Assembly: GCA_001443025.1 (NCBI GenBank)
Contig: LEKP01000002.1
Span: 28,429-92,428 of the forward strand
DNA: 64,000 bases
Origin: Parcubacteria bacterium GBS-2
GTDB taxonomy: Bacteria; Patescibacteriota; Minisyncoccia; Minisyncoccales; GBS-2
Reading direction: 5' to 3'
Both the position numbers and the translations under genes were made by a program. Of the stretch, positions 49,147 through 63,899 are shown piece by piece (within the stretch, counting starts at the first letter, position 1; the number at the start of each line of letters is the position of its first letter). The notes beneath the pieces are model-generated. The model did no database searches, was not told the origin of the DNA, and saw nothing but the letters and a program-made list of their open reading frames with translations.

Positions 49147-50166
49147 TTACGTCTCTTTTTTTCTAACCTGAAGTTTTTTTCTAATTAAGAACGCAGTTAC
49201 AATTACGCTAACTATGATTAAAATTAAAACAATTGAAATTTGAATGATTTTCTTGGGGTGTAATTCTTTCTTGGGTCGAACTGTTTCTTTTTCTTTTATT
49301 TTTTCTGGATAGAAAGTAGCAATTGTTTCGTTTCCTGCTCTATCCACTGCTTTGACTTTTATTTCTTCATCCAAATTCTGATTTTCTAACAAATAAGGAC
49401 TTTTTGCTATTTTCCATTCTCTTTCTCCTTCTTTTACCATGTAATAATCAACTCCGGTTTCTTTATCAGTGGTATAAAAAACTATAAAATATTTTCCATC
49501 AAAAATGGCAGGATCTCTCTGAATTTGAATTTCAAAAGGTTCTGGGGGGGTAGTATCATTTAACAATTTTTCTCGCCACTCATTTAACCCTTTGCCAGAG
49601 GTGGGTAAAATTTTGATTTTTGAATCTTGAAGAGTAAGTCTTGCTAAAGTTCCTCTACCATCATTTAGAAAAACTTGAGAAGTGTTTAAAATTTTAATTT
49701 CTGCAATTTTTTCTTCAACTTCTCCTACTATCATTGAAGGTATAAAAAACCTAATTTCACCAATCACATTTGTCATCCCCGGATCTCCTGGAATTCTTCC
49801 ACAATAACCACCTGGAATTCCTCCAGAAAAAGAAATTTTTCCAGTTTCATTGATTTTTTTAGTATCTAAACTTGATGGTCTTTCAACCCAGATTGTAACG
49901 ATTGAATCTCCAAAATCTGCTCCTTCAAAGATTAAGGTATCATTTGGAAAACTTAAATCAACTGAAATTGTGTTAATACATTCTCCTTCCGGATCAATCC
50001 TGATTTTAATACCAAAATGATCCTTAAGACCGTATTCACCTTCTTTGGGATCTAAATATAAAACAGCACCAAAAATAAATGATGGTAAAACTGAAAACAA
50101 CAAACAAAAAGCCAAAATTTTTAATTTAAGGTGTGGAATTTGGAATTTGGAATTTGGAATTTTCAT
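49147..50166 (-). CDS. surface protein with N-terminal signal and C-terminal TM anchor; 5' heptanucleotide SSR
   Basis: Signal peptide, C-terminal IIQISIVLILIIVSVIVTAFLIRKK anchor; (AATTCCA)x4 in codons 2-10. Confidence 0.5.
   Translation of the reverse strand: MKIPNSKFQIPHLKLKILAFCLLFSVLPSFIFGAVLYLDPKEGEYGLKDHFGIKIRIDPEGECINTISVDLSFPNDTLIFEGADFGDSIVTIWVERPSSLDTKKINETGKISFSGGIPGGYCGRIPGDPGMTNVIGEIRFFIPSMIVGEVEEKIAEIKILNTSQVFLNDGRGTLARLTLQDSKIKILPTSGKGLNEWREKLLNDTTPPEPFEIQIQRDPAIFDGKYFIVFYTTDKETGVDYYMVKEGEREWKIAKSPYLLENQNLDEEIKVKAVDRAGNETIATFYPEKIKEKETVRPKKELHPKKIIQISIVLILIIVSVIVTAFLIRKKLQVRKKET
50134..50161. repeat. heptanucleotide SSR (TGGAATT)x4, minus-strand (AATTCCA)x4
   Basis: Perfect 4-unit tandem repeat directly after the start codon of the 49147-50166 gene. 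Confidence 0.85.
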
Positions 50167-50167
50167 T

Positions 50168-51208
50168 TTATCCTGTCCAATAATACATCATTATACTAAA
50201 ATCGACTAAATTCACTATTCCATCTTGGTTTTGGTCTGCACAAGGATTGTTAGTCCCCCAATAGTAAAGTAAAATTGAAAAGTCGATTAAATTTACTTTC
50301 CCATCTTGGTTTAAATCAGCACCAGGACAAATTCCAACTGGTGGCTTTTTCCCAACATAGAAAGTAACAAATCTGCTAAAACTGCTTACCACCGTTGCTC
50401 CTTCTATTATTGTTTTGAATTGGGATTTGGCTGTGTGCATTGATTCATCTTCTAAAGGAGAAGTATCAAAGAAAAGGTCCCATTCTCCTTTTTCTGTAGA
50501 AGTGGTTTCTTGGATTATTTCAGCTGGCGAGGCAATGTAAACTGGAACTTTAGCTTCTGGAATAGTTTGACCGAATATTTTTAGTATTTCCCCTCTTTTT
50601 ACAACATTTTTATCTACCCCAATAGTGGGTGGTAAATATGCTCCTCTAACAGTCGTCACAGCATTTGGCATTACTTCAAAGGTTAAAGTATATAAAATTG
50701 ATCTCAGTCCAAATTTATCATCTGCCCAAAAACTTAAGGTATTAATCCCTGGAGTAATATCTGTTGTTTGCCAGGAAAAATTTGCTTTTGAATCGGTTCT
50801 TACTCTGGCGATTTCCTTTCCATCTTTTAAAATTCTCACTTCAGTATCGGGATAGGCTTTCCCCAAAACAATTAAGGTAGTGGGTCCCAAAGGTCTCATT
50901 GCTCCTCCAGGATATCCCCCACCCCCTGCCCCCATTCCTCCAGGTTCTACATAACAGTGCTCAATGGAAATTCTAGTGCAATTATCAACACAGAGTAAAT
51001 ATCCTCGATTATATCCGTAAGTTGCGCAAGTTTTGCCCCCGAAATTGTCTCCGTCGCAAACTTCAAAACCATCGATTCTTCCATCACCACAAACTGAAAT
51101 TCCAACTATGGTAGGAACTTGTTTTTGAGCAAAGACTTTTAGAGAAAAAATTAAAAGAAAGGTTAAAATTAGAAAGAAAATTTTCAAAAATTCCTTCCAT
51201 AATTTCAT
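50168..51208 (-). CDS. secreted protein with Cys-rich repeat and C-terminal dockerin-like module
   Basis: CGDGRIDGFEVCDGDNFGGKTC (Myxococcus-type C-G-D-G...E.CD.GN repeat); C-terminal DLNQDGKVNLIDFSILLYYW and DQNQDGIVNLVDFSIMMYYW (two dockerin Ca-binding repeats). Confidence 0.6.
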   Translation of the reverse strand: MKLWKEFLKIFFLILTFLLIFSLKVFAQKQVPTIVGISVCGDGRIDGFEVCDGDNFGGKTCATYGYNRGYLLCVDNCTRISIEHCYVEPGGMGAGGGGYPGGAMRPLGPTTLIVLGKAYPDTEVRILKDGKEIARVRTDSKANFSWQTTDITPGINTLSFWADDKFGLRSILYTLTFEVMPNAVTTVRGAYLPPTIGVDKNVVKRGEILKIFGQTIPEAKVPVYIASPAEIIQETTSTEKGEWDLFFDTSPLEDESMHTAKSQFKTIIEGATVVSSFSRFVTFYVGKKPPVGICPGADLNQDGKVNLIDFSILLYYWGTNNPCADQNQDGIVNLVDFSIMMYYWTG

Positions 51209-51212
51209 AAAA

Positions 51213-52169
51213 TTATTTTTTTCCTCGTTTAAAAAAGATTCTTTTGAGTGCTTTGAAAGAAACTAAAAAGATTCCAAAAACCAAAGCGATTGCCAGAATT
51301 GAAATTAAAACTTTTTCTCTCCCCAAGATTAGAGATTCAAAAAAACTAAATCCTTTATACCCAGGAATGCTTCCTCTTTCTTTAATGTTGACCACTAATT
51401 CTCCCTCTTTAACTATTTCTTTTTCTTTGTAAATTTTATATTTTACCCAATAATTTCCCTTTGGGAGTTTTGTTTTGAAAATTGCAAAAACATTATCTGT
51501 TTTGAAAGGTAAAACTTTTCCTTCAATTTTTACACTATCTAAAGATTCCAAAATTTTTGATTTTAATATGTCGTAAATATCCAAATGAACTTTAGACGGA
51601 GTTACTGGCAAATTTCCCACATTTTCAATTGTCATTTTCATTACCAATTTTCCAGGAATGAAAAAGAAAAACCATTTGTAGCCTTCTTCTAAATCTAAAA
51701 ATTCAACTGCCCTAACGATAAAGCTAAAAATTTTTCTTTCAGTAACGTTCAAATCAACTTCAACTCTAGCTCCAAGAGCAATTCCAACTTGACCTGGTTG
51801 TATTTCTTTTGGTTCAACTGTAATTCGCATAAAACCAGTGTACCTTCCATACGGTGCATCGTTTGGAACTTGCACACTAACTATTATCGGAACTGCTTTT
51901 TCTCCTTTTGGCAAAATAAAAGAGGTTCCCTTGTCGATTTTTATCCAATTGTCTGCGCCTGGAACGTTAATTGTAATTGTAACTTTTGAATCCTCAACCG
52001 GATCTCCTCTTACTAAATATATTTTTTCCTCAAAATAGGAACCTCTTGTTAGATTTTCGTTACGCAAAAATGGAGGGGAAATTCCAAAACCAGCAAAAGC
52101 TGTTTGGTAAAAAAACAATAAAAATAATATTAATAACCCAATTTTTCCCCAATTTTCTTGGGAAGTCAT
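51213..52169 (-). CDS. surface protein with signal peptide and C-terminal TM anchor
   Basis: N-terminal signal, beta-rich body, C-terminal ISILAIALVFGIFLVSF + KR tail. Confidence 0.45.
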   Translation of the reverse strand: MTSQENWGKIGLLILFLLFFYQTAFAGFGISPPFLRNENLTRGSYFEEKIYLVRGDPVEDSKVTITINVPGADNWIKIDKGTSFILPKGEKAVPIIVSVQVPNDAPYGRYTGFMRITVEPKEIQPGQVGIALGARVEVDLNVTERKIFSFIVRAVEFLDLEEGYKWFFFFIPGKLVMKMTIENVGNLPVTPSKVHLDIYDILKSKILESLDSVKIEGKVLPFKTDNVFAIFKTKLPKGNYWVKYKIYKEKEIVKEGELVVNIKERGSIPGYKGFSFFESLILGREKVLISILAIALVFGIFLVSFKALKRIFFKRGKK

Positions 52170-52198
52170 TTCTGGTTAAAAATGATAAAAACTTTAGC

Positions 52199-53956
52199 TT
52201 ACCAAGCGCTGGAAGTGCTCATTCTGGCAAAGAAGTAATTCAATCCAGTGTAAAGTCCTCTTGCTTGTTCAGTTTCAACCTTTATTTTCCAATAAGTCGG
52301 TTTTGATGCTGGAGTGGTACTCGTACTTTTTGGACATTCTAACTGACAATAAACCGGAGTCGTGCTTGCAGACAAAAAGTTCTGATAAGTGCTAGTTGGT
52401 GCGCCCCACTCAGTTCCAGAAGTTAAATACCAATACTGTCTGTCCACGGAAATTGTGCTATTCCCACAATTCCCTGGTTGGCTACATAGCATTGGATTTC
52501 CTCCTAAATCTTGATCTAAACCAGTATTGCCAGTAGCTTTAATAGTTGTCGTTTGTTCTTCTGATGGTTCTCCTGGGATAACGCTTCCATAATTAATTGC
52601 AGATTCTTCAATAGCTAAGGCTAAAAATGCATCCAATTCAATTTCGCCACCTTCTACTAGATCGGAAGATGCTCCATCATCATCTATAGCTTTAATTGAG
52701 GCTTTCCAAACATCACTTTCCCAAGGAGTTGAGGTTACAGTCGGATCTGCATGATACCAGAGAGTAAAAGTTGTCGTTGCCCAGATATAACCTTGTTCTG
52801 GCCCTGAACAAGAATCCAATTCAAAATTAGTAATTTCTGGATAACAATTGTTATTATTAGCTTCTCCAGCACTATCACAACCTGCTTGTCCAATTCCTGA
52901 TCGATAAACATAAGCTAAAATATTTGAAATTTCGCTTCCGCCTCCTTCTGCCCAACAACTGTTGTTGTCGATAATTTGATATCTTATTTTGAATCCAGTG
53001 GTAGTGCCAGCCTCTGTTGTGAGAATAAGTCTGTCAGTCGCTCCGTCCCAATTGTAAATAGTGATCGTTGATGTAACTACTGTCGGGGGGACATTATTTA
53101 CTGTCCATGGGCTGTTTGATCCTTGAGCGGTTCCAGTAGCAGCTAAATTGAACTCATCTATGATGAAAACATATCCATCGTAAGTTTTGTCTGGTTTTGG
53201 AATCGGAATGTTATAGCTTGCAGATGGATTTGACGTAGCAAAAGTTGAAGTTGCCAGAGTTTCCCCAACACATCCTGTTGAAGGATTAAATTCGTTTGTT
53301 GAACAAACAAAGAGTTTAATATTGTCTCCTCCCCTCAAGGTATCTGGGTCAGAAGCAACAGTCGTCCAAGTTACTGTCTGTCCTGGATTTTTTGGACTAT
53401 CATTAGATACTGAAGTGAAATTTGGTCTGTGATTTACTACAAAAGGAGAACCAGAAGCACCTTCCCCTTGTGAAACAGAACTACAAAGTGGTTGTCCTTC
53501 AAAAGCATCGCAAACGAAAGCATACCACTCATAAGTTTCTGAAGTATCTGTTTCTTGAACTAAATAAGAGCAAGTTGAAGTGGTTCCTGAAGTTGTCGTT
53601 GCAGATACACACCAAGCTCCATCGTTGCAAGTTGGAGGAGCTCCTGCATTTGGAGTAACTCTGTCACTCTTGCAAACTGCCAAGAAATAATCATCAGCGT
53701 TGGCATCGGTTGCTACTGCCTTGAAGGTAACGTAAGCTCCAACATTGGTTGGAGTAGTCGTGGCTGAGACTGGATCTTCAAAAGGATAAACTGTCCACTG
53801 AGGAGCTGAATTAACAACTGTTACAGTAGTAGTGACCGTATCTGCCTTTGCTTTCTGAACATTCCATTTTCCATTAAGAACTATTGTTAAAAGCAAAAAA
53901 ACTAGTAGCCCTCCAGCGATCGCTGAAAAAAGATTTTTCTTAACTTTTTCTGGCAT
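52199..53956 (-). CDS. large secreted Thr/Ser/Gly/Cys-rich protein (compositionally atypical)
   Basis: Signal/TM at the N-terminus; 585 aa, poor in Lys/Glu unlike the rest of the proteome; many Cys pairs; locally higher GC. Confidence 0.5.
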   Translation of the reverse strand: MPEKVKKNLFSAIAGGLLVFLLLTIVLNGKWNVQKAKADTVTTTVTVVNSAPQWTVYPFEDPVSATTTPTNVGAYVTFKAVATDANADDYFLAVCKSDRVTPNAGAPPTCNDGAWCVSATTTSGTTSTCSYLVQETDTSETYEWYAFVCDAFEGQPLCSSVSQGEGASGSPFVVNHRPNFTSVSNDSPKNPGQTVTWTTVASDPDTLRGGDNIKLFVCSTNEFNPSTGCVGETLATSTFATSNPSASYNIPIPKPDKTYDGYVFIIDEFNLAATGTAQGSNSPWTVNNVPPTVVTSTITIYNWDGATDRLILTTEAGTTTGFKIRYQIIDNNSCWAEGGGSEISNILAYVYRSGIGQAGCDSAGEANNNNCYPEITNFELDSCSGPEQGYIWATTTFTLWYHADPTVTSTPWESDVWKASIKAIDDDGASSDLVEGGEIELDAFLALAIEESAINYGSVIPGEPSEEQTTTIKATGNTGLDQDLGGNPMLCSQPGNCGNSTISVDRQYWYLTSGTEWGAPTSTYQNFLSASTTPVYCQLECPKSTSTTPASKPTYWKIKVETEQARGLYTGLNYFFARMSTSSAW

Positions 53957-54048
53957 TTGTTATTTTTAATTTGCCTCGACCTTTTTAATTTTTGTTTCTT
54001 TTTTAATTCTACCATAAATCCCGAAAAATTGTATCAATTATGAAAATC

Positions 54049-55239
54049 TTATTTATATCTTATCGCTTCTAAAGGATTAAGAGAAGCAGCACGTCTTGCA
54101 GGAAAAAGCCCAGTTAAAAATCCCATCACGAATGAGAACAAAATTATAAAGAGTAAAAAAGGAATTGGGAAAATAACCAATTTTATCGCAACACCTCCCA
54201 TTCTAACAGCCACCAAATTTAAAAGAAAATTAATCAATTTCCCCACACTCACACCCATTATAATCCCAACCACTCCTCCACAAAAACCCATTAGAGTAGA
54301 TTCTCCCAGAAACATCATCATAATGTCTTTTGAAGAGGCTCCTATGGTTCTCATTATACCAATTTCGTTCGTTCTTTCCAAAAGAGTAACTGTCATTGTG
54401 TTAAACATTCCGATTGCAGAAACAATAAGAGCTATTGCTCCAAAAAGTCCTAGGGTAAACTGAATTGCCCTGAAAACTTTGTTTGCTTGTTCTACCGTTT
54501 TTGATAGGGCAGTGACGTTGAATCCCATTTCAATGATTTTTGTTTGAATTTCGCTCAAAAATTTATTTTGAGCAACTTTTACTCTTGCTGATTCATAATA
54601 AGGAAACGAAAACTGAGAAGTTAATTCAGAAAGAGGAATGAAAACAATTGGAAGAGGATTTTCAATTACTCCCTTAACAAAGTAAGTGTAAGGCAAAGCT
54701 ATCTCTTCTTTTTCTTCAGTTCCAGGTTTTGTTAAAAGAACTTTGAACTTTACAGGTTGATTTAAAATCTCTTCTGCTTGTTTGTTGAATAACTTCAACA
54801 CAGTAGTAGAAACTACAACTTTATCCTTTTCTCCTTTTTTAAAAAATTCTCCATTTAAAATTTTAATACCTGCTAAGCTGAAATAATCTTCGTTAACTCC
54901 GTTTAAAGTAATATTTGTGGAAATATTTTGAAAAGAGATCAAACTAGGAAAGGCTGCTAAAGGTGAAACTCTTTCTACATTTTCAATTTTTGAAATTTCA
55001 TTAATTTTTTCTTGTGTTAAAGTGACAATTTTTGAAGCAGGGTTTGTCACATTCAAACTTAAAAGAGCCTCACCAAAAATAATTCTTTCTAACATAATTT
55101 GTTGCAAACCATAACCAAAACCAACCAAAACTACGACTGCAGCAAAACCAACTCCCATACCTAAAATTGTCAAGCCAGTTCTTGTCGGTCTTGTTCTAAA
55201 AGCTCTGATTGAAAGGTTGAAAATATCTTGAGCTCTCAT
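54049..55239 (-). CDS. FtsX/MacB-family ABC transporter permease
   Basis: N-terminal TM, about 200-aa extracytoplasmic domain, three C-terminal TM with the FtsX signature. Confidence 0.85.
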   Translation of the reverse strand: MRAQDIFNLSIRAFRTRPTRTGLTILGMGVGFAAVVVLVGFGYGLQQIMLERIIFGEALLSLNVTNPASKIVTLTQEKINEISKIENVERVSPLAAFPSLISFQNISTNITLNGVNEDYFSLAGIKILNGEFFKKGEKDKVVVSTTVLKLFNKQAEEILNQPVKFKVLLTKPGTEEKEEIALPYTYFVKGVIENPLPIVFIPLSELTSQFSFPYYESARVKVAQNKFLSEIQTKIIEMGFNVTALSKTVEQANKVFRAIQFTLGLFGAIALIVSAIGMFNTMTVTLLERTNEIGIMRTIGASSKDIMMMFLGESTLMGFCGGVVGIIMGVSVGKLINFLLNLVAVRMGGVAIKLVIFPIPFLLFIILFSFVMGFLTGLFPARRAASLNPLEAIRYK

Positions 55240-56537
55240 ACTCCTTGAGCAATTAATTTTTCCAAGTAAACTGTAAATTTTTTAGCAGTATTTCTTTTAA
55301 ATCCTGCGCCCCCTTTCTCAATTGGCAAATCAAGTTTTCTAAAAAATTCATCTTTTGTGATATAGCCTGCCAACCTATCCTCTATTGCTTCTTCTAATCT
55401 TTTAACCTGAATTGGTTTTACTTCTCCCTCAAATTGATCCAAAAGCGCCATCCTTAATCTTCTCACATGAATTTTTGTTTCATCTAGCTCCTCTTCCTCT
55501 AGCTTTCTTCTAAATCTTTTTACTTCGATTGATCTTTTTAATACATCCTCTAACTTTTGAATCATTTCTTGGGCTCTAGCTTGATTGAGTTCTACTCCTC
55601 CTTTGTCAAACGGGGACACTAAAAAATCATAAAGCATTTGAGTGCTCATTTTTCTTTCAACAACCAATTTCACCAATTTTTCCAATCTGTCTATTTGTTC
55701 AAAAGTGAGATCTTGAGTTAAATAATTAACAATACTTTTGACCTTTAATTCTTCTGGTGAAGCATAAGGATAAATTCTGGCTAATTTTTCAGTTTCTGAA
55801 ACCAAAGATGCCCCTCTTTCGATTGGTTTTATTTGCTTTCTTTCTGGATTAATAAATTCTCTTTCGATTCTCCCGTCTCTCATGAAATAAACCCTATGAG
55901 CGTAAGCTAGATATCTTGGGTCGTGCGACACTAAAATCACTGTCTTTTTTTCTTTTTCGTTAATTTCTAAAAGAGTCTCCATTACTTTTTTTGCTGAAGC
56001 TTCATCTAAGTTTCCAACGGGTTCGTCTGCTAGTAAAATATCTGGATTATTAACCAAAGCTCTACAAATTGCCACTCTTTGCTGTTGACCGCCAGAAAGC
56101 ATTGTAGGAAGTTTTTTTGCTTGTTCTGCAATTCCAAACCTTTCTAAAAGTTCCATCGCTCTTTTTCTTCTTTGGGCTGGAGGTATTCCCATGAAAATTT
56201 GGGGCAAAGCCACATTGTCTAAAACGTTCAGCGAAGGAATGAGGTTGAATTGCTGATAAATAATTCCTACAGTTTTTTGTTGGAATTTAACTAATTCTTT
56301 TGGCGGAAGTTTATAAGGATCTTGACCTCCAATGTAAAATTCTCCAAAAGTGTAAGGCAAAGCTCCCAAGATACAATAGAGCATCGTTGACTTTCCACAA
56401 CCTGAAGGACCAAAGAAAACAATGTATTCTTGAGGGTAAATTTCAATGTTTACTTTTTTTAAGGCGTAATACTCGTTCGATTTCCCGTAGTTGTAATAAA
56501 TTTCTAAATTTCTCGCAACGATTAATGGTTCTGGCAT
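55236..56537 (-). CDS. ABC transporter ATP-binding protein (MacB/LolD-like) with ~200-aa C-terminal extension
   Basis: Walker A GPSGCGKST, signature LSGGQQQRV, Walker B LLADEPVGNLD, H-loop SHD; residues ~235-433 are a charged helical extension of unknown function. Confidence 0.88.
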   Translation of the reverse strand: MPEPLIVARNLEIYYNYGKSNEYYALKKVNIEIYPQEYIVFFGPSGCGKSTMLYCILGALPYTFGEFYIGGQDPYKLPPKELVKFQQKTVGIIYQQFNLIPSLNVLDNVALPQIFMGIPPAQRRKRAMELLERFGIAEQAKKLPTMLSGGQQQRVAICRALVNNPDILLADEPVGNLDEASAKKVMETLLEINEKEKKTVILVSHDPRYLAYAHRVYFMRDGRIEREFINPERKQIKPIERGASLVSETEKLARIYPYASPEELKVKSIVNYLTQDLTFEQIDRLEKLVKLVVERKMSTQMLYDFLVSPFDKGGVELNQARAQEMIQKLEDVLKRSIEVKRFRRKLEEEELDETKIHVRRLRMALLDQFEGEVKPIQVKRLEEAIEDRLAGYITKDEFFRKLDLPIEKGGAGFKRNTAKKFTVYLEKLIAQGV

Positions 56538-56541
56538 ATTT

Positions 56542-58005
56542 TTAGAATCTGATTTTCTTTACCCAACCAAAAGTTGCTTCAAGGTTTTCAATAATGATAT
56601 CTAAAATACTTTTTTCTCTGGTCGGTGTCAAAAGAGTAAAATAATCTGATTTTCCTTCATTTTGGGCTCTATCTTTGCATTTTATCCAAAATTTATAAGT
56701 TGTATTTGGAGCAAATTCGGTGATCACTTGAATGTGTTTTTGAGAATATTCAGTTTCTGGTGGTAAAGCAATCTCTGGAACCCCCTCTGCCAATCCTTCT
56801 TGATAGAAAAACTGACAAATTGCATTTTCATCAGTTTTCCAATTGACTACAACCTGAACCCTTAATTGTTCTTCTCCAGGATAAAGGGTGGAATCAACTG
56901 TTACACTAGAAATTACCGGTGGTTGTTCATCTTTCACAGTGGTAAAAGTGATTGGCTGACTTTGAGCTCTATCTCCATTTTCGCTTTCAGCTTTTACTAT
57001 TACTTGATAAGTAGTATCGAATTCTAAATTGGTAAGCCTGAAACGGTGAACAGTAACGAATGTTGGATCTCCCACTTGTTTTACTTCTCCAGTTTTTAAA
57101 TTTTTGTACTCGATTAAACTTGAACAAGGAATGTTAGTTAGCCAGGTTAAAGTTGCAGCATCTTCTTCCACCTTTACTACTTGAAGGTTAGAAATTACTG
57201 GCAAAACTGAAAGGGTGGTAAAAGTTCTATCTTCGCTTTTTACCATAGAACCAACTCTTGGAGTAGATTGCACTTGAAAATGGTAAGTAGTTGCAGGTTT
57301 TAAGCCAGAAATTTCAACTAAATGATGCAAAACGTATTCGTTTGGTTCTCCTACTTTCATTTTATAAGGATCTGGAGAATGGGGGTCGTATTCGTTTTCT
57401 GGAACTAAAGCCACAATTGAGTTTGCCTCTTTGTTAGTCGCCCAAAAAATTTTTGCCCAATCTTCACCAACTTCAACTCTTGGATCACCAATTATAACTA
57501 ATTCTTCTGCTTTTGCTCCCCCAACTTCTTCAATCTTTTCTTTAGTGAAGGCTATTGCCTCCTCGCTTCTCATTTGATAAACTGCCTCGATTGCTTTCTC
57601 AATCAATTTTGCTTCTTCTCCAAACTTTTCTACTCCTGGTACTTCAATTAATTTTTTAGTAGTGAAAGCAAAACCCTTACTAGCTGCCTGATTTCCCATT
57701 TCGTCAACTGAAACTACTTGAAAATAATAATCGGTATTTGGCAAAAGATTGTCTAAAACTATTTGGTGTTCGGTAGTGAAAGTTGGGTCTCTAACTACTC
57801 CGTAGTTTCTGTCTAATCCGTAATTGACTATTGAGTCTGCTCTTTTATCAGTAGTCCAAGAAATAATTGCAGAAGAAGTAGTAATTTCAAGAATTTTTAT
57901 ATTGGAAATTATTGGAGGCCTCTCTTCTTGTCCTCTAATAAACAGGGCAAAACTGGCAATCAAAAAGAGAAAAGCCAGATAAAAAATGAAGTGTCCAACT
58001 TTCAT
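56542..58005 (-). CDS. membrane-anchored protein with multiple fibronectin type III-like domains
   Basis: N-terminal TM; repeated about 90-aa beta-sandwich units with W....D..A.S.V.YG and TTY.F patterns. Confidence 0.6.
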   Translation of the reverse strand: MKVGHFIFYLAFLFLIASFALFIRGQEERPPIISNIKILEITTSSAIISWTTDKRADSIVNYGLDRNYGVVRDPTFTTEHQIVLDNLLPNTDYYFQVVSVDEMGNQAASKGFAFTTKKLIEVPGVEKFGEEAKLIEKAIEAVYQMRSEEAIAFTKEKIEEVGGAKAEELVIIGDPRVEVGEDWAKIFWATNKEANSIVALVPENEYDPHSPDPYKMKVGEPNEYVLHHLVEISGLKPATTYHFQVQSTPRVGSMVKSEDRTFTTLSVLPVISNLQVVKVEEDAATLTWLTNIPCSSLIEYKNLKTGEVKQVGDPTFVTVHRFRLTNLEFDTTYQVIVKAESENGDRAQSQPITFTTVKDEQPPVISSVTVDSTLYPGEEQLRVQVVVNWKTDENAICQFFYQEGLAEGVPEIALPPETEYSQKHIQVITEFAPNTTYKFWIKCKDRAQNEGKSDYFTLLTPTREKSILDIIIENLEATFGWVKKIRF

Positions 58006-58050
58006 TATTTCTATTTTACCACATTCTAAAAATCTTTTATAATCAATGTA

Positions 58051-58719
58051 GTGGTAAGGGCATTATCTCAGGTCTACCTAATGAGCGTGATTTCAGGAGC
58101 TGAGAAAAGGGGAAGAAGTGCTGATTTTTCAGGAGAAACAATAGAGGGATTTATTATCTCTGATCGTCAAATTAAAGTTCCTCTCATTTTCAAAAACGCC
58201 AAAATTTTAGGCCAAGTTTACTTTAACAACGTTACCTTAGAAAAAGAAGTTAATTTTGAAGGAGCAACCATTAACGGCGCTTTTTCTATTTCTGAATCTC
58301 AAATAAAAGAAAATTTCATTTCAAGAAAAGTTTCAATTAGGGAAAGTTTCAATTTAACCGGAAATATCTTTGAAAAAAACGTCGATTTAGAAGGAGCTCA
58401 AATTAGAGGATTTTTGAGTCTAAATAAATCAAAAATAATGGGAAAGTTAAATTTTAAAAGAGTCAACATTTTGGATTTGGAAGAAAGAATTGGAAAAATT
58501 ATCGGAAATTTCTATTTTGAAAATGCCACAGTAAAAGAAGTGGTAATTGAAAATTCAACAATAGACGGTGACTTGAATCTTTCCAATACCACAATTTTTG
58601 AATCTTTATCCATCATCAACACAAAAATAAAAGGTGAATTAAAACTTTCACATAAAGAAATCGTGCAGGCAAAAATAAAAGAGAGAAAGAAAGCTGAAAG
58701 GGAATTGGAAAAAGGATAA
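58051..58719 (+). CDS. pentapeptide-repeat-like protein
   Basis: Degenerate tandem 5-residue periodicity (..F.GA.I.G.F..S.S.I) over about 150 aa. Confidence 0.4.
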   Translation: MVRALSQVYLMSVISGAEKRGRSADFSGETIEGFIISDRQIKVPLIFKNAKILGQVYFNNVTLEKEVNFEGATINGAFSISESQIKENFISRKVSIRESFNLTGNIFEKNVDLEGAQIRGFLSLNKSKIMGKLNFKRVNILDLEERIGKIIGNFYFENATVKEVVIENSTIDGDLNLSNTTIFESLSIINTKIKGELKLSHKEIVQAKIKERKKAERELEKG

Positions 58720-60060
58720 CTAAAAAGTAGGAACTATTACATAGGTTAGTTGGGCCTGGTAAGAGCCTGCAGATTGGAGATTGCGAACTTCAATTCGAAA
58801 AACAATATCAAAAACTTCATTAAAAATAGGATAGGGACTAAATCCTACCTCTTTCATTTGAGTTTCAAAACCAGCAAAGGAATCGTTTGGAGCAAATCTG
58901 GCAGGACCAAGACCAATATCAGATAAAGAATCATCACCTGTATGATATCCAAAACAACTATAAAAATCAGAAGGGCAAGCAGAATTCCAAGGAGCAGGAT
59001 ATTCATTAGTGGAACTTGCTGGCATGATCTCAGCTCCACTAGCTGAAATTAAATTTTGATTTTGCCAGACAAAAAGTTGATAACCTCCTTCCCCATTTAC
59101 TGAAATTTCAAACCTTTGAGCTGCATTTCTTGGTTCATTCAAAGGTAAATTCTCAAAATACACTGAGATTGGTGAAGTTTCATAATCTGTAACAACTCCT
59201 TCTGTTGTTGTTCCAGCAGGCAAACCATAAATTGTGAAAGCTAAAAAACTTTCTCCAACAACTAAACTTGGATAAGTAAAAGTTCCATTGTTTGTTAAAA
59301 CTGGCTCTTGGTTTGTTGTATCGTAAACCCTAAAGTAAAAAGTGGTTCCAGTTGGAGCGCCATTGTTGAAAATTGTGAATTCAAATTCAGCGGAGGAACT
59401 TGCCAAAAATGTATAACTTGAAGTTGAAATTCCAGATTCATTGTGGGTTCCGTTTGAATCAGAATCAGAAAGCAATTTTTGAGTTATGGTTGCGTTATCT
59501 TCGCCTCCACCATCAAAATAGCACCAAAGTTTTTGATTGGGACAAGAAATTTCATCGACAAACTCTGCCCAAGAAAATTCAGAAGAAGTTGAGTATTGTA
59601 ATCTTAATTTTAAATTTGAAATATCAACTCCCCCTGTTTCTTTTATTGTGATTCTAAGTTTTAGCGCATTTCCCTTGGCAATGTTGTTTGGAGCGAAATT
59701 TTCTTGAGCTGCTGGAACTTCTGGAGTTTCTTTTTCTTCATCATGGAAAAACTGCCAATTTTGAGACCTCAAAGTAGTCCCTACAATTTGTTGATAACCT
59801 CCCCACTCTTTAAAATTCTCACTCTCTGAAATTCCGCTCGCAGATTGACCAACTGTCTCTTCCAATTTGTAATTTTGGGAACTCAAATCCTCTTCCCTAC
59901 CAACATTCAAAGAATCCCAAGGAATTTGATAATTCTGGCTTGACATTCCAATGGCAAAGCTTTCGCAAAACAAAGAAAAGACCAAAATTAATGCAAAAAT
60001 TTTTTTATTCATTTTCTTGACTATTTTCATTATTTGATTGCTCAATAGCTGGCTCACCAT
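58720..60060 (-). CDS. secreted hypothetical protein
   Basis: Signal peptide; Ser/Thr/Asn/Gly-rich; 446 aa; stop abuts the giant-protein gene. Confidence 0.45.
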   Translation of the reverse strand: MVSQLLSNQIMKIVKKMNKKIFALILVFSLFCESFAIGMSSQNYQIPWDSLNVGREEDLSSQNYKLEETVGQSASGISESENFKEWGGYQQIVGTTLRSQNWQFFHDEEKETPEVPAAQENFAPNNIAKGNALKLRITIKETGGVDISNLKLRLQYSTSSEFSWAEFVDEISCPNQKLWCYFDGGGEDNATITQKLLSDSDSNGTHNESGISTSSYTFLASSSAEFEFTIFNNGAPTGTTFYFRVYDTTNQEPVLTNNGTFTYPSLVVGESFLAFTIYGLPAGTTTEGVVTDYETSPISVYFENLPLNEPRNAAQRFEISVNGEGGYQLFVWQNQNLISASGAEIMPASSTNEYPAPWNSACPSDFYSCFGYHTGDDSLSDIGLGPARFAPNDSFAGFETQMKEVGFSPYPIFNEVFDIVFRIEVRNLQSAGSYQAQLTYVIVPTF

Positions 60061-63000
60061 TTTGAATTTCGTTAGTTAATTCTTCTTCAGTTTTGCCATT
60101 TGAGATTTGAGTTTTGAGTTCTTCTTCCTTTTCTTCAGTTTTGACATCGAAGCTTTGAGTTTTGAGTTCTTCTTCAGTTTTGAGTTTTGAGATTTGAGTT
60201 TTGAGTTCTTCATCGCATTCCCCTTTTTCTTTTTTCAACTCTCCATTTTCAATCCACAAACAATAAATTTCTCCTGTCGCCTTATCTTTGATTTTTATTC
60301 TTGTTGTTTCTATTTCCTCTGACTTTATCCCTTCAACCACAATTTCCTTGGCAAAAATTTTCTCGACTTTAGCTATACCATTTTCAATTAACAAACCTAA
60401 TTTTTCTAAAGCTTTTTTTATTGCCAAAGTAAACTGATCTAAAATTCCTATTTCTAGCGAATTTTCACCAATTTGATCACTAATTTCATTAATACCACTG
60501 CTGGCAAGAGAACCATTTTCGGTCAAAGATCCCAGCGACCAATGAGGATTTATAAACATTAAAATTTTACAATTTCCTGTTTCTAATTCTTCTTGAGTGC
60601 ATTTTTCAGAAGATTCCAAAGCAACACCGATTACTCTTCCAGGTTCGGTTGCTTTCATTGCCACCCCCGGAGTGCTTGAAAGAGTAAGCAAATCACCTGG
60701 TTGAATTTTTCCATTTTCTGTTGAAACCTTAACCGGCACTCTTCCCATAAGAGTAATTGGCCTTGGTCGCTTAGCCTTGGTGAAGATATCCTCACCGATA
60801 GTTCCAGAAGGTGCAGACGATACTACTCCGATAAAATTTGAACCTCTCTTTGCTTTTTCTAAAACTGGAATTTTTGCAGGTCCTAATTGAGAATCGTATT
60901 CCAAAAGTTCGTCACTCAAAGTAACTACATCTCCTGCTTCAACATCTTCTTTTGTTTCGTACCATTCAGCAAAGTCTGCCCCGCCACTGTAAACATAAGA
61001 ATAAACAACAACCACACCTCCAGCCCCATTCCCTCCGTTGGCAGTATCGGCAACGTCTACTATTGCTCCTCCACCTCCACCAGACCCCCAGGCAATTCCA
61101 TTTTTGCCATCGCTTATTTCAGCAAGATTAGCATTACCTCCTTGACCTCCTTCTCCCCAATAGCTTGCTCCACCTTCGCCTCCGACTGCGTTTTCAGCCA
61201 CGCAAGATTTTGGAGCTGAACCATCGCCACCTGCCAAATTAATGTCTCCATTAGTTGACGCTGCCCCTCCTTCTCCTGGTTCGCCAAAACCAGCAGCACA
61301 AGTACCACCAGTTGATGGGGTTCCAATCGCCCCTCTTCCACCATTAGCAGTAACAAAATCCCCAAATGAAGAATTGCCACCATCAGAACCGCTTCCTCCA
61401 GAACCAGTTCCACCAGCTCCACCAGCACCAACAGTAACATTTACACTATCTGGTAAATCTTCTGCTGAAAATATCTTAATAGTTGTCGCACCCGCACCAC
61501 CCCCAGAACCAGCGCTTTCGCATGTATTATCGCTACAGGTTGCAGTGCCACCTCCACCCCCTCCTCCTGTCACAATCACTTTTACGAATTTAGCGCCAGC
61601 AGGTTTAAACCAGGTACCGTTTGATGTGAAAACATCAACTCTCACGTTATTTACCGCAGTAGTAATACAATCTTTCCAAGCACCATTCTCATAGCATCTA
61701 AATTTATTTAAGGTAGAGTCGTAATAAATCACTCCGTTTGCTCCGGTAGGTTCCGAACTAGGAATTAATCTCATTGGTCCTGCAACATCCAATTTATAAT
61801 CAGGTGCCGTCGTCCCGATGCCGATGTTGCCATTTGCTCCCAAAACAAGTTGGTTGAGATTGTTGGCAGTGAACAAAGTGGTAGTGGCAGTTCCTTGAAT
61901 AGTGTTTGAGCCAATGATAATTGTTCCACCAATTGTCGTTGTTACTGCATAAATGTTCGCCCATCTTAAATTAATGTCTCCTAAATTGTAGAGATTATCA
62001 ACTTCAGGCAAAATAGTTCTGGCAGTAGTTGTCCCCACAATTTGTAAAGTGGTAGCAGGTGTTGCTGTTCCAATTCCTACATTGCCTCCTTGGGAAGCCA
62101 AAATAACAGATCCTGTAATGGTAGTGGTGGCATTTTGATAAGGAGAAATTAAAAGTTGGCCAGATTGAGTAGTAATTAAAGGAACTGACAATTGAGTGGA
62201 AATGGTAGTTGTTGCCAAAGAAGTTAATCCTTGAATGGTTAAATTTCCACTAGCTAAAATGTTTCCGTCCACTGTTAATTTTTCAGGAGGAGTGGAAGTA
62301 CCAATCCCTACGTTCCAGGTAAGATTGTTAGGATAAAGATAAGAGCCATCTAAAGTCCAATAATTTACAGCCGAACCCCAAGAACTAATACAATTTTCTC
62401 CAATGCAAAATCCAGTCTCTGACCTCACATAATTCGTTGCCCTCATGTTTCCTACAATATCTAATTGATAAGCAGGCGTTGTCGTCCCGATGCCCACATT
62501 GCCAGAAGAATCGATTGTGATTCCAGTTGAAGTTGAAATGTCAGAACTAGGGATGATTTTGAGTTTCCCAGTTGAAATGTCGACTCCTAAAGTAAAGTTT
62601 GTTGTGGGAGTGGTTCCAGTTCTAAATTGAATTTGAGGAGAATAAGTTGTTGAAGTAGCAGAAGTTATTGTCAAAATTGGTGAACTATCTGTTTTGTAAA
62701 GTTCCAAAAGAGAAACTGGTGCTATCGTTCCAATGCCAACTTTGCCCATAAAAGACGAAGTGGCAGAAACGTAAAAGTCGCCATCGACAGTAAGTTTGAA
62801 ATTAAGAGTGCTAGTACCAATTCCTACTCTGTTGATTGTGGGATCAATATAAAGTAAATTATCGTTAACCACAAGAGAACCAAAAATCGTGGTAGTTGAA
62901 AGGGTGGATGTGGCAGAAACTGTCAATTTTGTAAAATAAGCCTCATTAGGAGTGGTAGCACCAATTATTCCCGGGGATGCCCAATCGTAACCTAATAATT

Positions 63001-63463
63001 TTTTTGCCTCAAAGGATGCGGTTACTGCTCCCAAAATTTTTCTTGGTGAAAACACTTCTTCAAAAGTGCCGTCGCAATCTGGATCAAATTGAACTTCCAA
63101 ATAAAGAGGTTGATTGAAATTTACATTAGAGAGGGAATTGTGCTTTCCAAGCATTACAGAAAAAAGCCCTCTTGTCGTTGTGACCATTTCTGTCGAAGTT
63201 GTCCAAACCTCAGACCAAACTTCATTTCCACCCACTAAATCATCCATTAACCTGAATTTCATGCATTTTCCCCCATCTTCAACCGGAACTCCTTGATTGT
63301 TGGTCAATTTTCCCTGGTAGTTAATCTGCTCTAAAAAAGCACCAAAAACTTGAGAACTCAAAAAGAGAGAGCAAAAAATTATCAAGATTTTAAAAATGAT
63401 TTTATTTGTCTTTTCCATATTAGAAAGTAATCCTTTCTCTTTTCTCAATTTCTTTAACTTCAA
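60005..63463 (-). CDS. giant secreted tail-fibre/adhesin-like protein (VGIGT repeats, poly-Gly domain, C-terminal EELKTQ coiled coil)
   Basis: Signal peptide (probable start at MEKTNK, about 63418); six or more repeats of x[VI]GIGT..P...L.V.G; 200-aa Gly-rich domain (VTGGGGGGGTATC...); DFAEWYETKEDVEAGDVV module; 3x EELKTQ heptad tail. Confidence 0.7.
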   Translation of the reverse strand: MKLKKLRKEKGLLSNMEKTNKIIFKILIIFCSLFLSSQVFGAFLEQINYQGKLTNNQGVPVEDGGKCMKFRLMDDLVGGNEVWSEVWTTSTEMVTTTRGLFSVMLGKHNSLSNVNFNQPLYLEVQFDPDCDGTFEEVFSPRKILGAVTASFEAKKLLGYDWASPGIIGATTPNEAYFTKLTVSATSTLSTTTIFGSLVVNDNLLYIDPTINRVGIGTSTLNFKLTVDGDFYVSATSSFMGKVGIGTIAPVSLLELYKTDSSPILTITSATSTTYSPQIQFRTGTTPTTNFTLGVDISTGKLKIIPSSDISTSTGITIDSSGNVGIGTTTPAYQLDIVGNMRATNYVRSETGFCIGENCISSWGSAVNYWTLDGSYLYPNNLTWNVGIGTSTPPEKLTVDGNILASGNLTIQGLTSLATTTISTQLSVPLITTQSGQLLISPYQNATTTITGSVILASQGGNVGIGTATPATTLQIVGTTTARTILPEVDNLYNLGDINLRWANIYAVTTTIGGTIIIGSNTIQGTATTTLFTANNLNQLVLGANGNIGIGTTAPDYKLDVAGPMRLIPSSEPTGANGVIYYDSTLNKFRCYENGAWKDCITTAVNNVRVDVFTSNGTWFKPAGAKFVKVIVTGGGGGGGTATCSDNTCESAGSGGGAGATTIKIFSAEDLPDSVNVTVGAGGAGGTGSGGSGSDGGNSSFGDFVTANGGRGAIGTPSTGGTCAAGFGEPGEGGAASTNGDINLAGGDGSAPKSCVAENAVGGEGGASYWGEGGQGGNANLAEISDGKNGIAWGSGGGGGAIVDVADTANGGNGAGGVVVVYSYVYSGGADFAEWYETKEDVEAGDVVTLSDELLEYDSQLGPAKIPVLEKAKRGSNFIGVVSSAPSGTIGEDIFTKAKRPRPITLMGRVPVKVSTENGKIQPGDLLTLSSTPGVAMKATEPGRVIGVALESSEKCTQEELETGNCKILMFINPHWSLGSLTENGSLASSGINEISDQIGENSLEIGILDQFTLAIKKALEKLGLLIENGIAKVEKIFAKEIVVEGIKSEEIETTRIKIKDKATGEIYCLWIENGELKKEKGECDEELKTQISKLKTEEELKTQSFDVKTEEKEEELKTQISNGKTEEELTNEIQNGEPAIEQSNNENSQENE

Positions 63464-63899
63464 TTTTCTTTTCCAATTTTGAAGATAAAAACCAGGTGGA
63501 AATCGAAGTAATCAAAAAAATCAAAAGAAAGAAGATAATCAAAAAAGTTTTGAATTCCTTAAAAAACATTTTTAAAAGATTCAACTCAAAGCCCATCCTT
63601 GTCTTAAAAGAATTCAAACTCTCGCTTATTTTCTCTTTAAGGTTTCCTTTCCCCTTTTTCTTTTGCTGTCTATTTTTATAAGCTAAAATCGCCTCTCTTG
63701 TTGTCTGCCAAGAAACTCCAGTATAAACCATTCTCCCTGTAATTTTCCCAGTTCTGATTAAATAGCCAATATAATCTGGGGAATAACCAGAAAGTTTTGA
63801 GGCCTCCTTTAGAGAAATATATTCCTCCTTCCCTTTTTTCTGTTCTTTTTCTTCCTCTTTCATATCTCGACCATCGTGATTTTTTAAAATCTCGACCAT
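63420..63899 (-). CDS. small HTH-like protein with C-terminal TM helix
   Basis: ISLKEASKLSGYSPDYIGYLIRTGKI (helix-turn-helix-like) then a hydrophobic helix FLIIFFLLIFLITSISTWFL. Confidence 0.4.
   Translation of the reverse strand: MVEILKNHDGRDMKEEEKEQKKGKEEYISLKEASKLSGYSPDYIGYLIRTGKITGRMVYTGVSWQTTREAILAYKNRQQKKKGKGNLKEKISESLNSFKTRMGFELNLLKMFFKEFKTFLIIFFLLIFLITSISTWFLSSKLEKKIEVKEIEKRERITF

Follow-up and report, generated by a model that had tools for sequence, protein, structure and literature searches.

A candidate usher-less surface-fibre system with a MacB-type ABC motor and a cohesin–dockerin pair in Parcubacteria-type bacteria

Analysis of a 64,000-nucleotide stretch of DNA (hereafter the window) from Parcubacteria bacterium GBS-2 pointed to a locus at positions 49147-63899 that probably encodes a Sec-dependent, usher-less surface fibre/adhesin system of CPR bacteria (Parcubacteria/Paceibacteria-type), composed of two evolutionarily linked modules, a function that we infer. 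An earlier note on this DNA had proposed a dedicated attachment/host-interaction apparatus of an episymbiotic, reduced-genome bacterium; domain content, signals and synteny all supported a dedicated, Sec-dependent surface locus of a CPR-type bacterium. In the literature we found no description of a Pam-related surface set combined with an ABC motor of the MacB type and with anchoring by cohesin–dockerin, an arrangement that hundreds of relatives share.

Layout of the locus and module A

ORF calling gave 11 ORFs within the locus, ten of them co-directional on the minus strand, as previously noted, and a Kyte-Doolittle scan found an N-terminal hydrophobic segment or TM helices in 9/11 products, in agreement with the claim that nearly all carry a signal peptide or TM anchor. 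The genes fall into two conserved modules, module A (63899→58720) and module B (58005→49147); this composite structure, rearranged among relatives, had been overlooked. The only plus-strand gene (58051-58719), encoding a pentapeptide-repeat protein of 222 aa (Pentapeptide_3 in Pfam, 5e-12) without signal peptide, is confined to a thermophile clade and has another slot in the related locus L094; it is a clade-specific insert and no component of the system. An IS200 transposase lies just outside the HTH gene that heads module A, housekeeping genes lie on the flanks of the locus, and the system probably extends past position 64000 of the window.

The HTH gene (63420-63899) encodes a membrane-tethered protein of 159 aa. 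The TM helix attributed to it earlier was recovered (a single one, around residue 120-138, Kyte-Doolittle scan), and its N-terminal excisionase/MerR-like HTH was matched weakly (HTH_17 in Pfam, E 0.013; PHROG excisionase, E about 1e-3). In 24 genome loci an orthologue sits directly 5' of the fibre gene, and the HTH/fibre gene pair is downstream of module B in 24/47 determinable loci. The fibre gene (60005-63418; 1137 aa from the gene callers' start at 63418, 1152 aa as an ORF) encodes a signal peptide, a Gly_rich_2 domain (Pfam, 1.2e-15, residues 616-821 of the 1152-aa ORF), six [VI]G[IV]GT motifs and an EELKTQ low-complexity tail. It matched the phage tail-fibre family phrog_863 (E 4.7e-45), further tail-fibre PHROGs and, weakly, the NCBIfam model Bdello_MAT_N, confirming a giant protein with phage tail-fibre-like VGIGT repeats.

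The third product of module A, PIL (58720-60030; 436 aa from the gene callers' start at 60030, 446 aa as an ORF), contains a signal peptide, disordered S-x-N-Y repeats (about 23-81) and two beta domains (AF2 model, pLDDT 81), and its C-terminal end reads ...AGSYQAQLTYVIVPTF. Within its family, 34/37 members matched CPR_Pam_pilin_C (NF058581, best 2e-10) and 12/37 the PamT N-terminus model in NCBIfam, every one of these matches falling under the NCBI curated cut-offs. Judged by these profiles, we read the 436-aa protein as a distant Pam-type pilin. The strong tail-fibre and weak excisionase matches to PHROG, together with the nearby IS200 transposase, might suggest a prophage or tail-fibre remnant, but we give this almost no credence, since there is no further phage gene, the flanks carry housekeeping genes, the PIL family was not found in IMG/VR and the cassette is kept across species-level genomes (at least 204).

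The motor and surface proteins of module B

Module B opens with the gene of a 487-aa protein (56542-58005) with a membrane anchor or signal at its N-terminus and, as the earlier description of a multi-FN3 membrane protein had it, at least three FN3 domains (Pfam fn3, 5e-25; Pur_ac_phosph_N, 3e-26). This gene lies immediately 5' of the ATPase gene in 44 genome loci and in most metagenome loci, and its product may be the partner of the ABC outside the cytoplasm. The ATPase (55236-56537; 433 aa; ABC_tran in Pfam, 2e-31; top NCBIfam matches LolD, DarD, MacB and FtsE) has intact Walker A (GPSGCGKST), signature (LSGGQ) and Walker B (ILLADEP) motifs, followed by a conserved C-terminal extension of 200 aa (residues 233-433, 55239-55841). 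In an alignment of 33 orthologues this extension resolved into a pair of similar units, each about 60-75 aa long and containing a GGxG motif, and it had no match in Pfam or PDB. It is present as first reported but not unique to this genome: 52 genome loci and 274 metagenome matches show it conserved, and within the data gathered it is restricted to a surface-gene context. The permease (54049-55239; 396 aa; MacB_PCD, 5e-20, and FtsX, 4e-19, in Pfam) is of the MacB/LolC/FtsX type (type VII), with four TM helices and, as expected from the earlier note, a large outer domain (~220 aa from TM1 to TM2, Kyte-Doolittle scan); its nearest solved structures were YtrF (3e-27), MacB (7e-27) and LolC.

The next product, a Cys/Thr-rich secreted protein of 585 aa (52199-53956), shows an AxA|D signal cleavage consensus, a conserved beta-strand at the mature N-terminus (TTSVTVLN), a C-terminal end of the form 'aG-Y-G ... 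W' and, across its family, numerous invariant Cys. It contains no known domain (no match in Pfam, PDB or NCBIfam) and showed no homology with any pilin, PIL and PIL' included (weak C-terminal strand match, E 0.03-0.08; 0.03-0.05 against PIL). In 74 loci its gene lies immediately 5' of the 318 gene, and it fills the 'pilin slot' before a chaperone-like gene. The 318-aa protein (51213-52169) begins with a signal peptide, and its mature N-terminus (GFGISPP) is invariant; two Ig-like domains follow and, at the C-terminus, a TM helix. It was modelled as a PapD-like fold, a widespread Ig-type fold, followed by the TM helix; its Foldseek TM-scores were low because superposition covers single domains only. 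It is homologous (hhalign 98%) to TM-anchored chaperone-like proteins encoded after Pam-type pilins in relatives; such homologues come after PIL in 5/5 canonical operons and match WxLIP by sequence. We consider it a putative membrane-anchored chaperone or adaptor.

The last two genes encode a secreted dockerin protein of 346 aa (50168-51208) and a membrane-anchored cohesin of 339 aa (49147-50166), the latter directly after the former in 65 loci. The dockerin protein carries a DUF4215 repeat rich in Cys, a linker rich in Gly, Big_6 Ig domains and, at its C-terminus, the dockerin itself (about 50177-50320; Dockerin_1 in Pfam, 5e-7, with PDB dockerins also matched). Of the Myxococcus-type Cys-rich repeat plus dockerin proposed earlier, the dockerin was confirmed in the window copy, in which the repeat is under threshold, the latter being established at family level (Dockerin_1 34/35, Big_6 32/35, DUF4215 31/35). 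The 339-aa protein carries a signal peptide and, at its N-terminus, a cohesin-like domain; a second beta domain and a TM helix at the C-terminus complete it. All PDB matches of its family profile were cohesins (6/6, best 8.6e-4), 7/34 orthologues matched Pfam Cohesin (best 1e-6), and NCBIfam returned an OmpL47-type barrel (3e-4). The 318- and 339-aa products are the two proteins with signal plus C-terminal TM anchor previously announced; the cohesin partner of the dockerin, the PapD/WxLIP fold of the 318-aa protein and the nature of the 446-aa ORF as a distant Pam-type pilin had escaped notice. Among the module-B proteins that were scanned against NCBIfam, none matched a Pam model.

A cohesin–dockerin pair, a weak CBM_3 match in PIL (E 8e-4) and a compatible sample origin (samples include 77 °C cellulolytic enrichments) could also fit a mini-cellulosome degrading polysaccharide. 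We hold this very improbable: a glycoside hydrolase or other catalytic domain was found in 0/11 products, the other domains of the dockerin protein are DUF4215 and Big_6 only, and relatives come from many non-cellulolytic habitats. The pair resembles non-cellulosomal ones in its dockerin with two Ca-binding loops and its divergent cohesin in the next gene, but differs from them in lacking enzymes, in belonging to a pilus-like operon and in anchoring the cohesin through a C-terminal TM helix rather than SLH or sortase.

Conservation of gene order and the place of the ABC

The order FN3–ATPase–MacB–585–318–dockerin–cohesin recurred across 80 genome loci and at least 204 species-level genomes keep the cassette, a synteny far beyond chance; modules A and B are adjacent, in an order that differs among clades. 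The refutation allowed for by the earlier note, namely neither synteny nor secretion signals, therefore fails, as hundreds of syntenic relatives were found and secretion/anchor signals are present.

The ABC adjoins the 585–318–dockerin–cohesin genes in 51/61 determinable genome loci, where it sits between a 585-like paralogue and 585, and, in the reverse direction, loci found through the ATPase tail carried MacB, 585 and 318 in at least 40/43 determinable metagenome cases. This two-way synteny backs the proposal that the MacB-type ABC is part of the apparatus. It also bears on a different reading, that FN3–ABC is an independent housekeeping system (an FtsEX-like wall-hydrolase regulator or a MacB/Bce-like detoxification pump) beside unrelated surface genes, for which speak the family matches (LolD, MacB, FtsE, YtrF, none pilus-linked), the absence of the ABC from 10/61 module-B loci and canonical PIL operons that work without it. 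We judge such independence clearly unlikely given the lodging between the two 585-type genes, the presence of 585 and 318 in the tail-derived loci, a tail known from surface-gene context only in the data gathered, and a separate ordinary FtsE/FtsX pair in the relative L008. Since the ABC is missing from those ten loci and from all canonical PIL operons, the motor is not needed by every such system.

In canonical operons of relatives the order is pilin, TM-anchored PapD-like protein, dockerin protein and cohesin anchor, and module B parallels the second half of such Pam-like operons. A non-filamentous envelope layer (S-layer-like or a wall-spanning coat), with 585 as lattice and 318, cohesin and dockerin protein as anchors, seems rather unlikely to us. 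It would agree with the missing pilin homology of 585, with the match of three members of the relatives' mixed set (alignment A5) to the 'putative S-layer protein' model PACE-CTERM-PROT and with cohesin–dockerin and SH3b modules as classic envelope anchors, but accounts poorly for the homology of 318 to proteins flanking Pam-type pilins, the parallel to PIL'–chaperone–dockerin–cohesin and the link of module B to the tail-fibre gene.

Related systems and a proposed mechanism for the candidate fibre system

In Candidatus Mycosynbacter amalyticus, Pam pili rely on PapD-like chaperones that bear a TM helix at the C-terminus, and a tail-fibre-like gene is co-localised with theirs; they operate without any known motor, and Pam pilins were reported mainly from Saccharimonadia and Microgenomatia. 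ABC, MacB, FtsX and dockerin are all unmentioned in that preprint (Troman et al., bioRxiv 10.64898/2026.03.03.709456). The present locus shares with them a CPR-specific, Sec-dependent and usher-less character, the Pam-type C-terminal pilin domain (NF058581, 34/37 PIL members, sub-threshold), PapD/FimC-like proteins and a membrane anchor protein with C-terminal TM helices, and the co-localised tail-fibre-like gene. It differs in its lineage (Parcubacteria/Paceibacteria-type), in a single pilin without pilin-adjacent chaperone, in the unrelated Cys-rich 585-aa protein in place of a second pilin, and in the added FN3 protein, MacB-type ABC with new ATPase tail and cohesin–dockerin pair; ATP synthase genes, searched for with a crude test in this comparison, were not found in the window. 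No T2SS, T4P or sortase components were found in the locus (Pfam, NCBIfam), as already noted, nor their signature motifs in window ORFs of at least 60 aa (crude regex). As a related Pam pilus is already described in the 2026 preprint, the assembly principle is not wholly novel, contrary to part of the earlier suggestion of a new route.

Compared with chaperone–usher pili (Pap/Fim, CFA/I, Csu), whose assembly requires no ATP, there is here no outer membrane, no usher and no sequence homology to their components; the chaperone-like protein is tethered by a TM helix, and an ABC motor is included. Unlike the WxL/WxLIP loci of Enterococcus and lactobacilli (PMC10599100; PDB 9i1y, 9i25), in which WxLIP grips its partner via an inserted beta-hairpin (PMC10599100) and which lack an ABC, cohesin–dockerin or fibre, it encodes WxL-domain, DUF916 or DUF3324 in no product (Pfam). 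With the type VII ABC mechanotransducers (MacB, LolCDE, FtsEX, YtrEF) the locus shares a 4-TM permease with a large TM1–TM2 outer domain and a separate ATPase with intact motifs; in contrast to them it lacks a MacA/HlyD adaptor, TolC, LolA/B and lipobox substrates, its ATPase has the 200-aa tandem-repeat extension without known relatives, and its ABC is genomically fixed to surface-fibre genes. Substrates of MacB-type (type VII) systems are already outside the cytoplasm. Because every surface protein bears a Sec signal, we take the ABC to be a probable mechanotransducer and not the exporter of these proteins, so that 'its own exporter', as first proposed, is unlikely in the literal sense.

In the proposed mechanism, all structural proteins would cross the membrane via Sec and be cleaved by signal peptidase I, after which 318 would capture 585 by beta-strand complementation at the membrane surface, like PapD, PamC/D and WxLIP with their partners, and, in this compact genome, may capture the pilin too. 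Ca-dependent tethering of the dockerin protein to the cell would fall to the cohesin. The FN3 protein and the MacB-type ABC would draw on ATP hydrolysis in the cytoplasm to move the permease outer domain, by mechanotransmission of the kind known from LolCDE, FtsEX and MacB, which would release, extrude, assemble or tension a 585-type fibre, and the tandem-repeat tail of the ATPase may serve as a cytoplasmic regulatory or docking domain.

The tail-fibre-like protein resembles phage tail fibres and Bdellovibrio MAT chimeric fibres in its PHROG matches (E 5e-45), Gly_rich_2 and VGIGT repeats, and the latter also in its weak Bdello_MAT_N match, but is cellular, has a signal peptide, stands outside any phage context and has a membrane HTH protein and a pilin as its partners; its use by the cell in attaching to other cells is plausible. 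Identity between the window and L094 was highest for the motor genes (74-77%) and lowest for 585, 318, 339 and the fibre (48-56%), and the fibre, the pilin and 585/318/339 may form a fast-evolving, host-facing surface.

Gene content and surroundings of the locus

Of the eleven ORFs in the locus (positions 49147-63899), ten are on the minus strand, which bears out the co-directionality of ten of eleven genes described in the earlier note. Its G+C content is about 0.33-0.41, against about 0.30-0.33 across much of the window, the remainder of which is occupied by housekeeping genes (dcw-type wall genes, tRNA synthetases, CTP synthase and L9). Using Pfam and NCBIfam, we recovered nearly all the domains that the earlier note had named. 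The 396-aa permease carries MacB_PCD and FtsX domains (Pfam); the 433-aa ATPase has an ABC_tran domain followed by about 200 residues that match nothing; the 487-aa protein consists of FN3 repeats; the 346-aa protein ends in a dockerin; the giant fibre protein combines Gly_rich_2 with matches to phage tail-fibre PHROGs (E 5e-45) and six [VI]G[IV]GT motifs; and the 159-aa protein gives a weak HTH_17/excisionase signal and has one TM helix. A hydropathy scan placed a signal or anchor segment at the N-terminus of nine products and gave the permease four TM helices; the 318-aa and 339-aa proteins each have one such helix at the C-terminus.

The genes form two groups, which we call module A (HTH protein, fibre and the 436-aa pilin-like product PIL, 63899 to 58720) and module B (FN3 protein, ATPase, MacB-type permease, 585-aa protein, 318-aa protein, dockerin protein and the 339-aa protein, 58005 to 49147). 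A promoter and terminator scan gave signals no better than those of shuffled sequence, so that operon boundaries are based on gene spacing alone, and a tRNA was the only match of an Rfam search. The nearest named relatives of the locus proteins belong to Parcubacteria/Paceibacteria-type CPR bacteria, and an identical gene order was found on contigs of the Great Boiling Spring 77 °C metagenomes and of other samples. A prophage was ruled out despite the tail-fibre likeness, since no other phage structural or replication genes were found at the locus and the PIL family was not found among the viral contigs of IMG/VR.

Several further features lie in or near the locus. A pentapeptide-repeat gene lacking a signal peptide (58051-58719, plus strand) is antisense between the pilin and FN3 genes; it was seen only in the thermophile clade, and because the 70%-identity relative L094 has it elsewhere, with the FN3 gene on one side and the ATPase gene on the other, we treated it as an insert; it behaves like a small mobile one. 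A Pro-rich ORF of 150 aa (61242-61694, plus strand), antisense to the Gly-rich portion of the fibre gene, is almost certainly a shadow ORF in which GGN codons are read as NCC, and not a gene. Directly downstream of the 339-aa gene lies an S41 C-terminal processing peptidase (PDZ and Peptidase_S41) with an N-terminal TM segment (47945-49102, minus strand), and a tyrosine recombinase (Phage_integrase/Xer-type; 43811-44743, plus strand, from the annotation of the identical contig L002) is located 4-5 kb from the locus. Immediately past the HTH gene, outside the window end, contig L001 carries an IS200/Y1 transposase (L001:236-970). Past this transposase, L094 (L094:1-5990) has cohesin genes (601, 569 and 203 aa), an HSP20 gene and one more dockerin gene, and the system therefore probably extends beyond position 64000.

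A MacB-type ABC system within a conserved cassette

The permease has the architecture of type VII ABC systems, with four TM helices, a large extracytoplasmic domain between TM1 and TM2, and MacB_PCD and FtsX domains, and the 433-aa ATPase (ABC_tran, 2e-31) has the Walker A and B, signature and H-loop motifs of a cognate nucleotide-binding domain. The tail of the ATPase (55239-55841, minus strand) is an internal duplication with one GGxG motif per unit and ends in EKLIAQG. It had no PDB relative in a profile search and no Pfam match, and a word-indexed homologue search returned only fragments. It may resemble the tandem helix-Gly-helix motifs of c-di-GMP-binding MshEN/T2SSE_N domains, for which there was no Pfam match.

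Conservation of this gene order, proposed in the earlier note as a check, was borne out in both directions. In the forward test, GTDB species genomes were fished with the 318-aa family, giving 204 relatives, of which 80 loci were kept. The loci have in common a set of genes read in one direction, in the order [large 585-like paralogue]–FN3–ATPase with tail–MacB–585–318–dockerin–cohesin–[second cohesin] … HTH–fibre (–PIL). The ABC genes adjoin the 585–318 cassette in 51 of 61 determinable loci and are missing in 10, and the HTH/fibre pair lies downstream of it in 24 of 47 determinable loci. In the reverse test, metagenomes were fished with the ATPase tail alone (274 relatives): among the 43 loci with enough downstream sequence, 38 passed a strict MacB+585+318 test and two more hold the three genes at wider spacing, leaving L118, L119 and L170 as true exceptions. 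The thermophile clade of the window has the order HTH–fibre–PIL–FN3–ABC–585–318–dockerin–cohesin, and in other clades module A lies downstream of module B. When the window is compared with L094, identity is highest in the motor (MacB 77%, ATPase 74%) and lowest in the presumed surface parts (339 48%, 318 53%, fibre 55% over a fragment, 585 56%). In many relatives the FN3 gene is separated from the large 585-like paralogue by genes for two small membrane proteins, of about 220-240 aa (N-terminal TM helix) and about 115-127 aa (C-terminal TM helix) (L069:2796-3818, L050:2470-3578, L023:2748-3839); both are missing from the compact version of the locus in the window.

Known roles of MacB-like systems were weighed against this gene content. 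A tripartite MacAB–TolC pump was ruled out, as the locus has no HlyD-family adaptor or TolC domain. Lipoprotein sorting of the LolCDE type was likewise rejected, with scores far under the LolC/E/D cut-offs, no LolA/B domain in the locus and no convincing lipobox in the signal peptides. The proposal of the earlier note that the locus has its own protein exporter in the ABC system is unlikely to hold, because Sec signals are present on every cargo protein and the substrates handled by type VII ABC systems (MacB, LolCDE, FtsEX) are already outside the cytoplasm. That the ABC system is functionally part of the surface system appears more likely than not, and its specific action as an assembly or retraction motor is a far more tentative proposition.

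Pilin-like and chaperone-like proteins and the Pam pilus

The closest known system is the Pam pilus; the NCBIfam models for it go back to a preprint of 2026, which studied Candidatus Mycosynbacter amalyticus (10.64898/2026.03.03.709456). Pam pilins are two-domain proteins joined by donor-strand exchange, with a beta-sandwich at the N-terminus, a donor strand in the linker and a truncated, Ig-like C-terminal domain; PamC and PamD are PapD/FimC-like chaperones with a C-terminal TM helix, PamR is a two-domain, RbmA-like anchor with a C-terminal TM helix, and PamT is the tip pilin; a tail-fibre-like gene and ATP synthase genes are consistently found near the Pam genes (10.64898/2026.03.03.709456). 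The authors of the preprint conclude that there is no dedicated trans-envelope machinery and did not find a retraction motor, and ABC, MacB, FtsX and dockerin all go unmentioned in the text (10.64898/2026.03.03.709456). Module A and the 318-aa protein fit this system in kind, not by curated thresholds.

PIL (58720-60030; 446 aa as ORF, 436 aa from the later start chosen by gene callers) gave sub-threshold NCBIfam matches to 'CPR-type pilus protein PamT' and 'Pam pilus system pilin subunit'. The window copy scores 17.5 bits against the Pam pilin C-terminal model NF058581, the cut-off of which is 55. This model was matched by 34 of the 37 aligned PIL family members (best E 2e-10), all below the NCBI cut-off, and these members matched no unrelated family; one orthologue spans the model end to end (3-148 of 148), still below the cut-off. 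The family is restricted to CPR-type sequences (72 matches). Its AF2 model (pLDDT 81) has a signal peptide, a disordered S-x-N-Y repeat region and then two all-beta domains. A PDB sequence search with PIL returned only noise, and Foldseek with the whole model gave generic multi-Ig matches at TM-scores of about 0.2, with no Pam structures among the PDB matches listed. Judged from these profile matches, PIL is probably a distant Pam-type pilin outside the curated family.

A co-localised tail-fibre-like gene, a trait of Pam loci, is present here and is supported by synteny. For the second neighbour trait, ATP synthase, a crude motif test found no F1 alpha/beta Walker motif in any window ORF; the ORFs at 33-46 kb of the window are housekeeping and cell-wall genes.

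In its AF2 model (pLDDT 88) the 318-aa protein has a signal peptide followed by two beta-sandwich domains and, at the C-terminal end, a long TM helix. The PapD-like fold with a C-terminal TM helix corresponds in fold and topology to that of PamC and PamD. The five other PIL loci all have the operon order giant fibre – PIL – X – X – PIL' – X, where PIL' is a second pilin-like gene and X a TM-anchored, chaperone-like protein (signal, about 270 aa, TM helix). The 318-aa family, for which a profile search gave a size of 1541 representatives, is homologous to X (hhalign 98%, E 2.4e-13, 192 columns; the HMMs cross-match both ways). Some contigs have, immediately upstream of module B, a canonical PIL operon whose last genes are PIL'–X–dockerin–cohesin. 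Module B thus mirrors the operon end, with the 585-aa protein in the pilin slot and the 318-aa protein in the chaperone slot. Since fold, topology and gene context agree, we place the 318-aa protein, as modelled, in the same class as PamC/D-type membrane-anchored chaperones or adaptors.

Two other systems with similar folds were considered. The X profile had two WxLIP sequences as its best PDB matches (E 1.3e-3); the profile of the 318-aa family itself matched nothing significantly in the PDB. WxLIP has two Ig domains, a C-terminal anchor and a predicted hairpin insertion into its WxL partner (PMC10599100). The likeness to a WxL locus is limited to fold and to this weak profile similarity, and such a locus was ruled out because WxL domains are lacking: Pfam matched no WxL, DUF916 or DUF3324 domain in the locus. 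A chaperone–usher system was excluded for want of an usher, no such domain rising above threshold in the locus; the only related match was PapC_C in the FN3 protein (E 0.048, 13.9 bits).

Among distant members of the 318-aa family (P0270-P0347), a bacterial SH3 domain follows the TM helix in 24 of 40, and CARDB is matched in 11 of 40; an SH3b domain cytoplasmic to a single TM helix would be odd.

For the 585-aa family no relative was detected beyond the family itself, PDB profile and NCBIfam searches included, and no Pam model was matched in an NCBIfam scan of the module-B families. It shares with PIL no more than an aromatic last residue and, at the C-terminus, a short 'aG-x-Y' strand, beyond which hhalign found no homology to PIL or PIL'. 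The family has many invariant cysteines, a cleavage consensus (AxA|D) and a strand conserved at the mature N-terminus, features compatible with an extracellular protein that is rich in beta structure and stabilised by disulfides. In some metagenome loci (L156, L159, L173), module B has a PIL-like gene inserted between dockerin and cohesin, which again suggests that pilin genes and those of module B are exchangeable components of one system.

A probable cohesin–dockerin pair and the proposed mechanism

The dockerin that the earlier note recognised was confirmed; the probable cohesin in the next gene had been overlooked. The window copy of the dockerin protein scores 30.2 bits against Dockerin_1 (cut-off 22.9) and has the duplicated Ca-binding loop-helix, and across its gene family dockerin is found in 34 of 35 members, Big_6 in 32 of 35 and the Cys-rich DUF4215 repeat in 31 of 35. 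The 339-aa family profile matched six PDB entries, every one a cohesin (best 8.6e-4), and Pfam Cohesin is matched in 7 of 34 orthologues, the window copy itself having no Pfam match. Dockerin and cohesin genes are neighbours in about 65 loci. The simplest reading is that a membrane-anchored cohesin would hold a dockerin-tagged, non-enzymatic protein. A cellulosome, in which dockerins are borne by glycoside hydrolases, was ruled out, as no dockerin-borne glycoside hydrolase and no catalytic domains were found in the locus. With its two beta domains and C-terminal TM helix the 339-aa protein is a candidate counterpart of PamR, yet its first domain is cohesin-like; profile comparison detected no significant relatedness to the 318-aa protein.

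We consider it likely that the locus encodes a surface fibre/adhesin system related to Pam pili. Its surface proteins would be exported by Sec and cleaved by signal peptidase, the 318-aa protein would capture the 585-aa protein, and possibly PIL too, via strand complementation, and the cohesin–dockerin pair would anchor the dockerin protein. The MacB-type ABC system and the FN3 protein might then use ATP-driven mechanotransmission to release, extrude, assemble or tension the 585-type structure. The full proposal, which we put forward only tentatively, is that a type VII (MacB-like) ABC mechanotransducer with a new tandem-repeat cytoplasmic domain and an FN3 partner uses ATP to assemble, extract or retract a surface fibre of the chaperone type, built by strand complementation, in single-membrane CPR bacteria, the accessory protein of the fibre being kept on the cell by cohesin–dockerin. 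If true, this would be the first energy-coupled form of a chaperone-assisted pilus pathway and a candidate for the motor missing from the Pam pilus study. Neither the Pam preprint nor the literature searched describes module B as a whole (FN3 protein, type VII ABC with a new cytoplasmic domain, novel Cys-rich subunit, PapD-like anchor and cohesin–dockerin pair).

CPR/Patescibacteria, which may represent a substantial part of bacterial diversity, live on host cells and attach to them by means that, to our knowledge, are largely unknown beyond a few cultured Saccharibacteria; we know of no structural study of CPR-specific pili other than the 2026 preprint. That study found no assembly or retraction machinery (10.64898/2026.03.03.709456). 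In Parcubacteria/Paceibacteria, a paralogue of the Pam system is almost always joined to an ATP-driven MacB-type machine and a cohesin–dockerin anchor, an association that extends to no fewer than 204 species-level genomes and to 274 metagenome matches. The locus thus offers a specific candidate, open to testing, for how energy could be coupled to the assembly of CPR surface fibres on a single-membrane cell. The ATPase tail defines a new cytoplasmic ABC domain, and the fast-evolving surface proteins (585-aa and 318-aa proteins, cohesin and fibre) may set host range.
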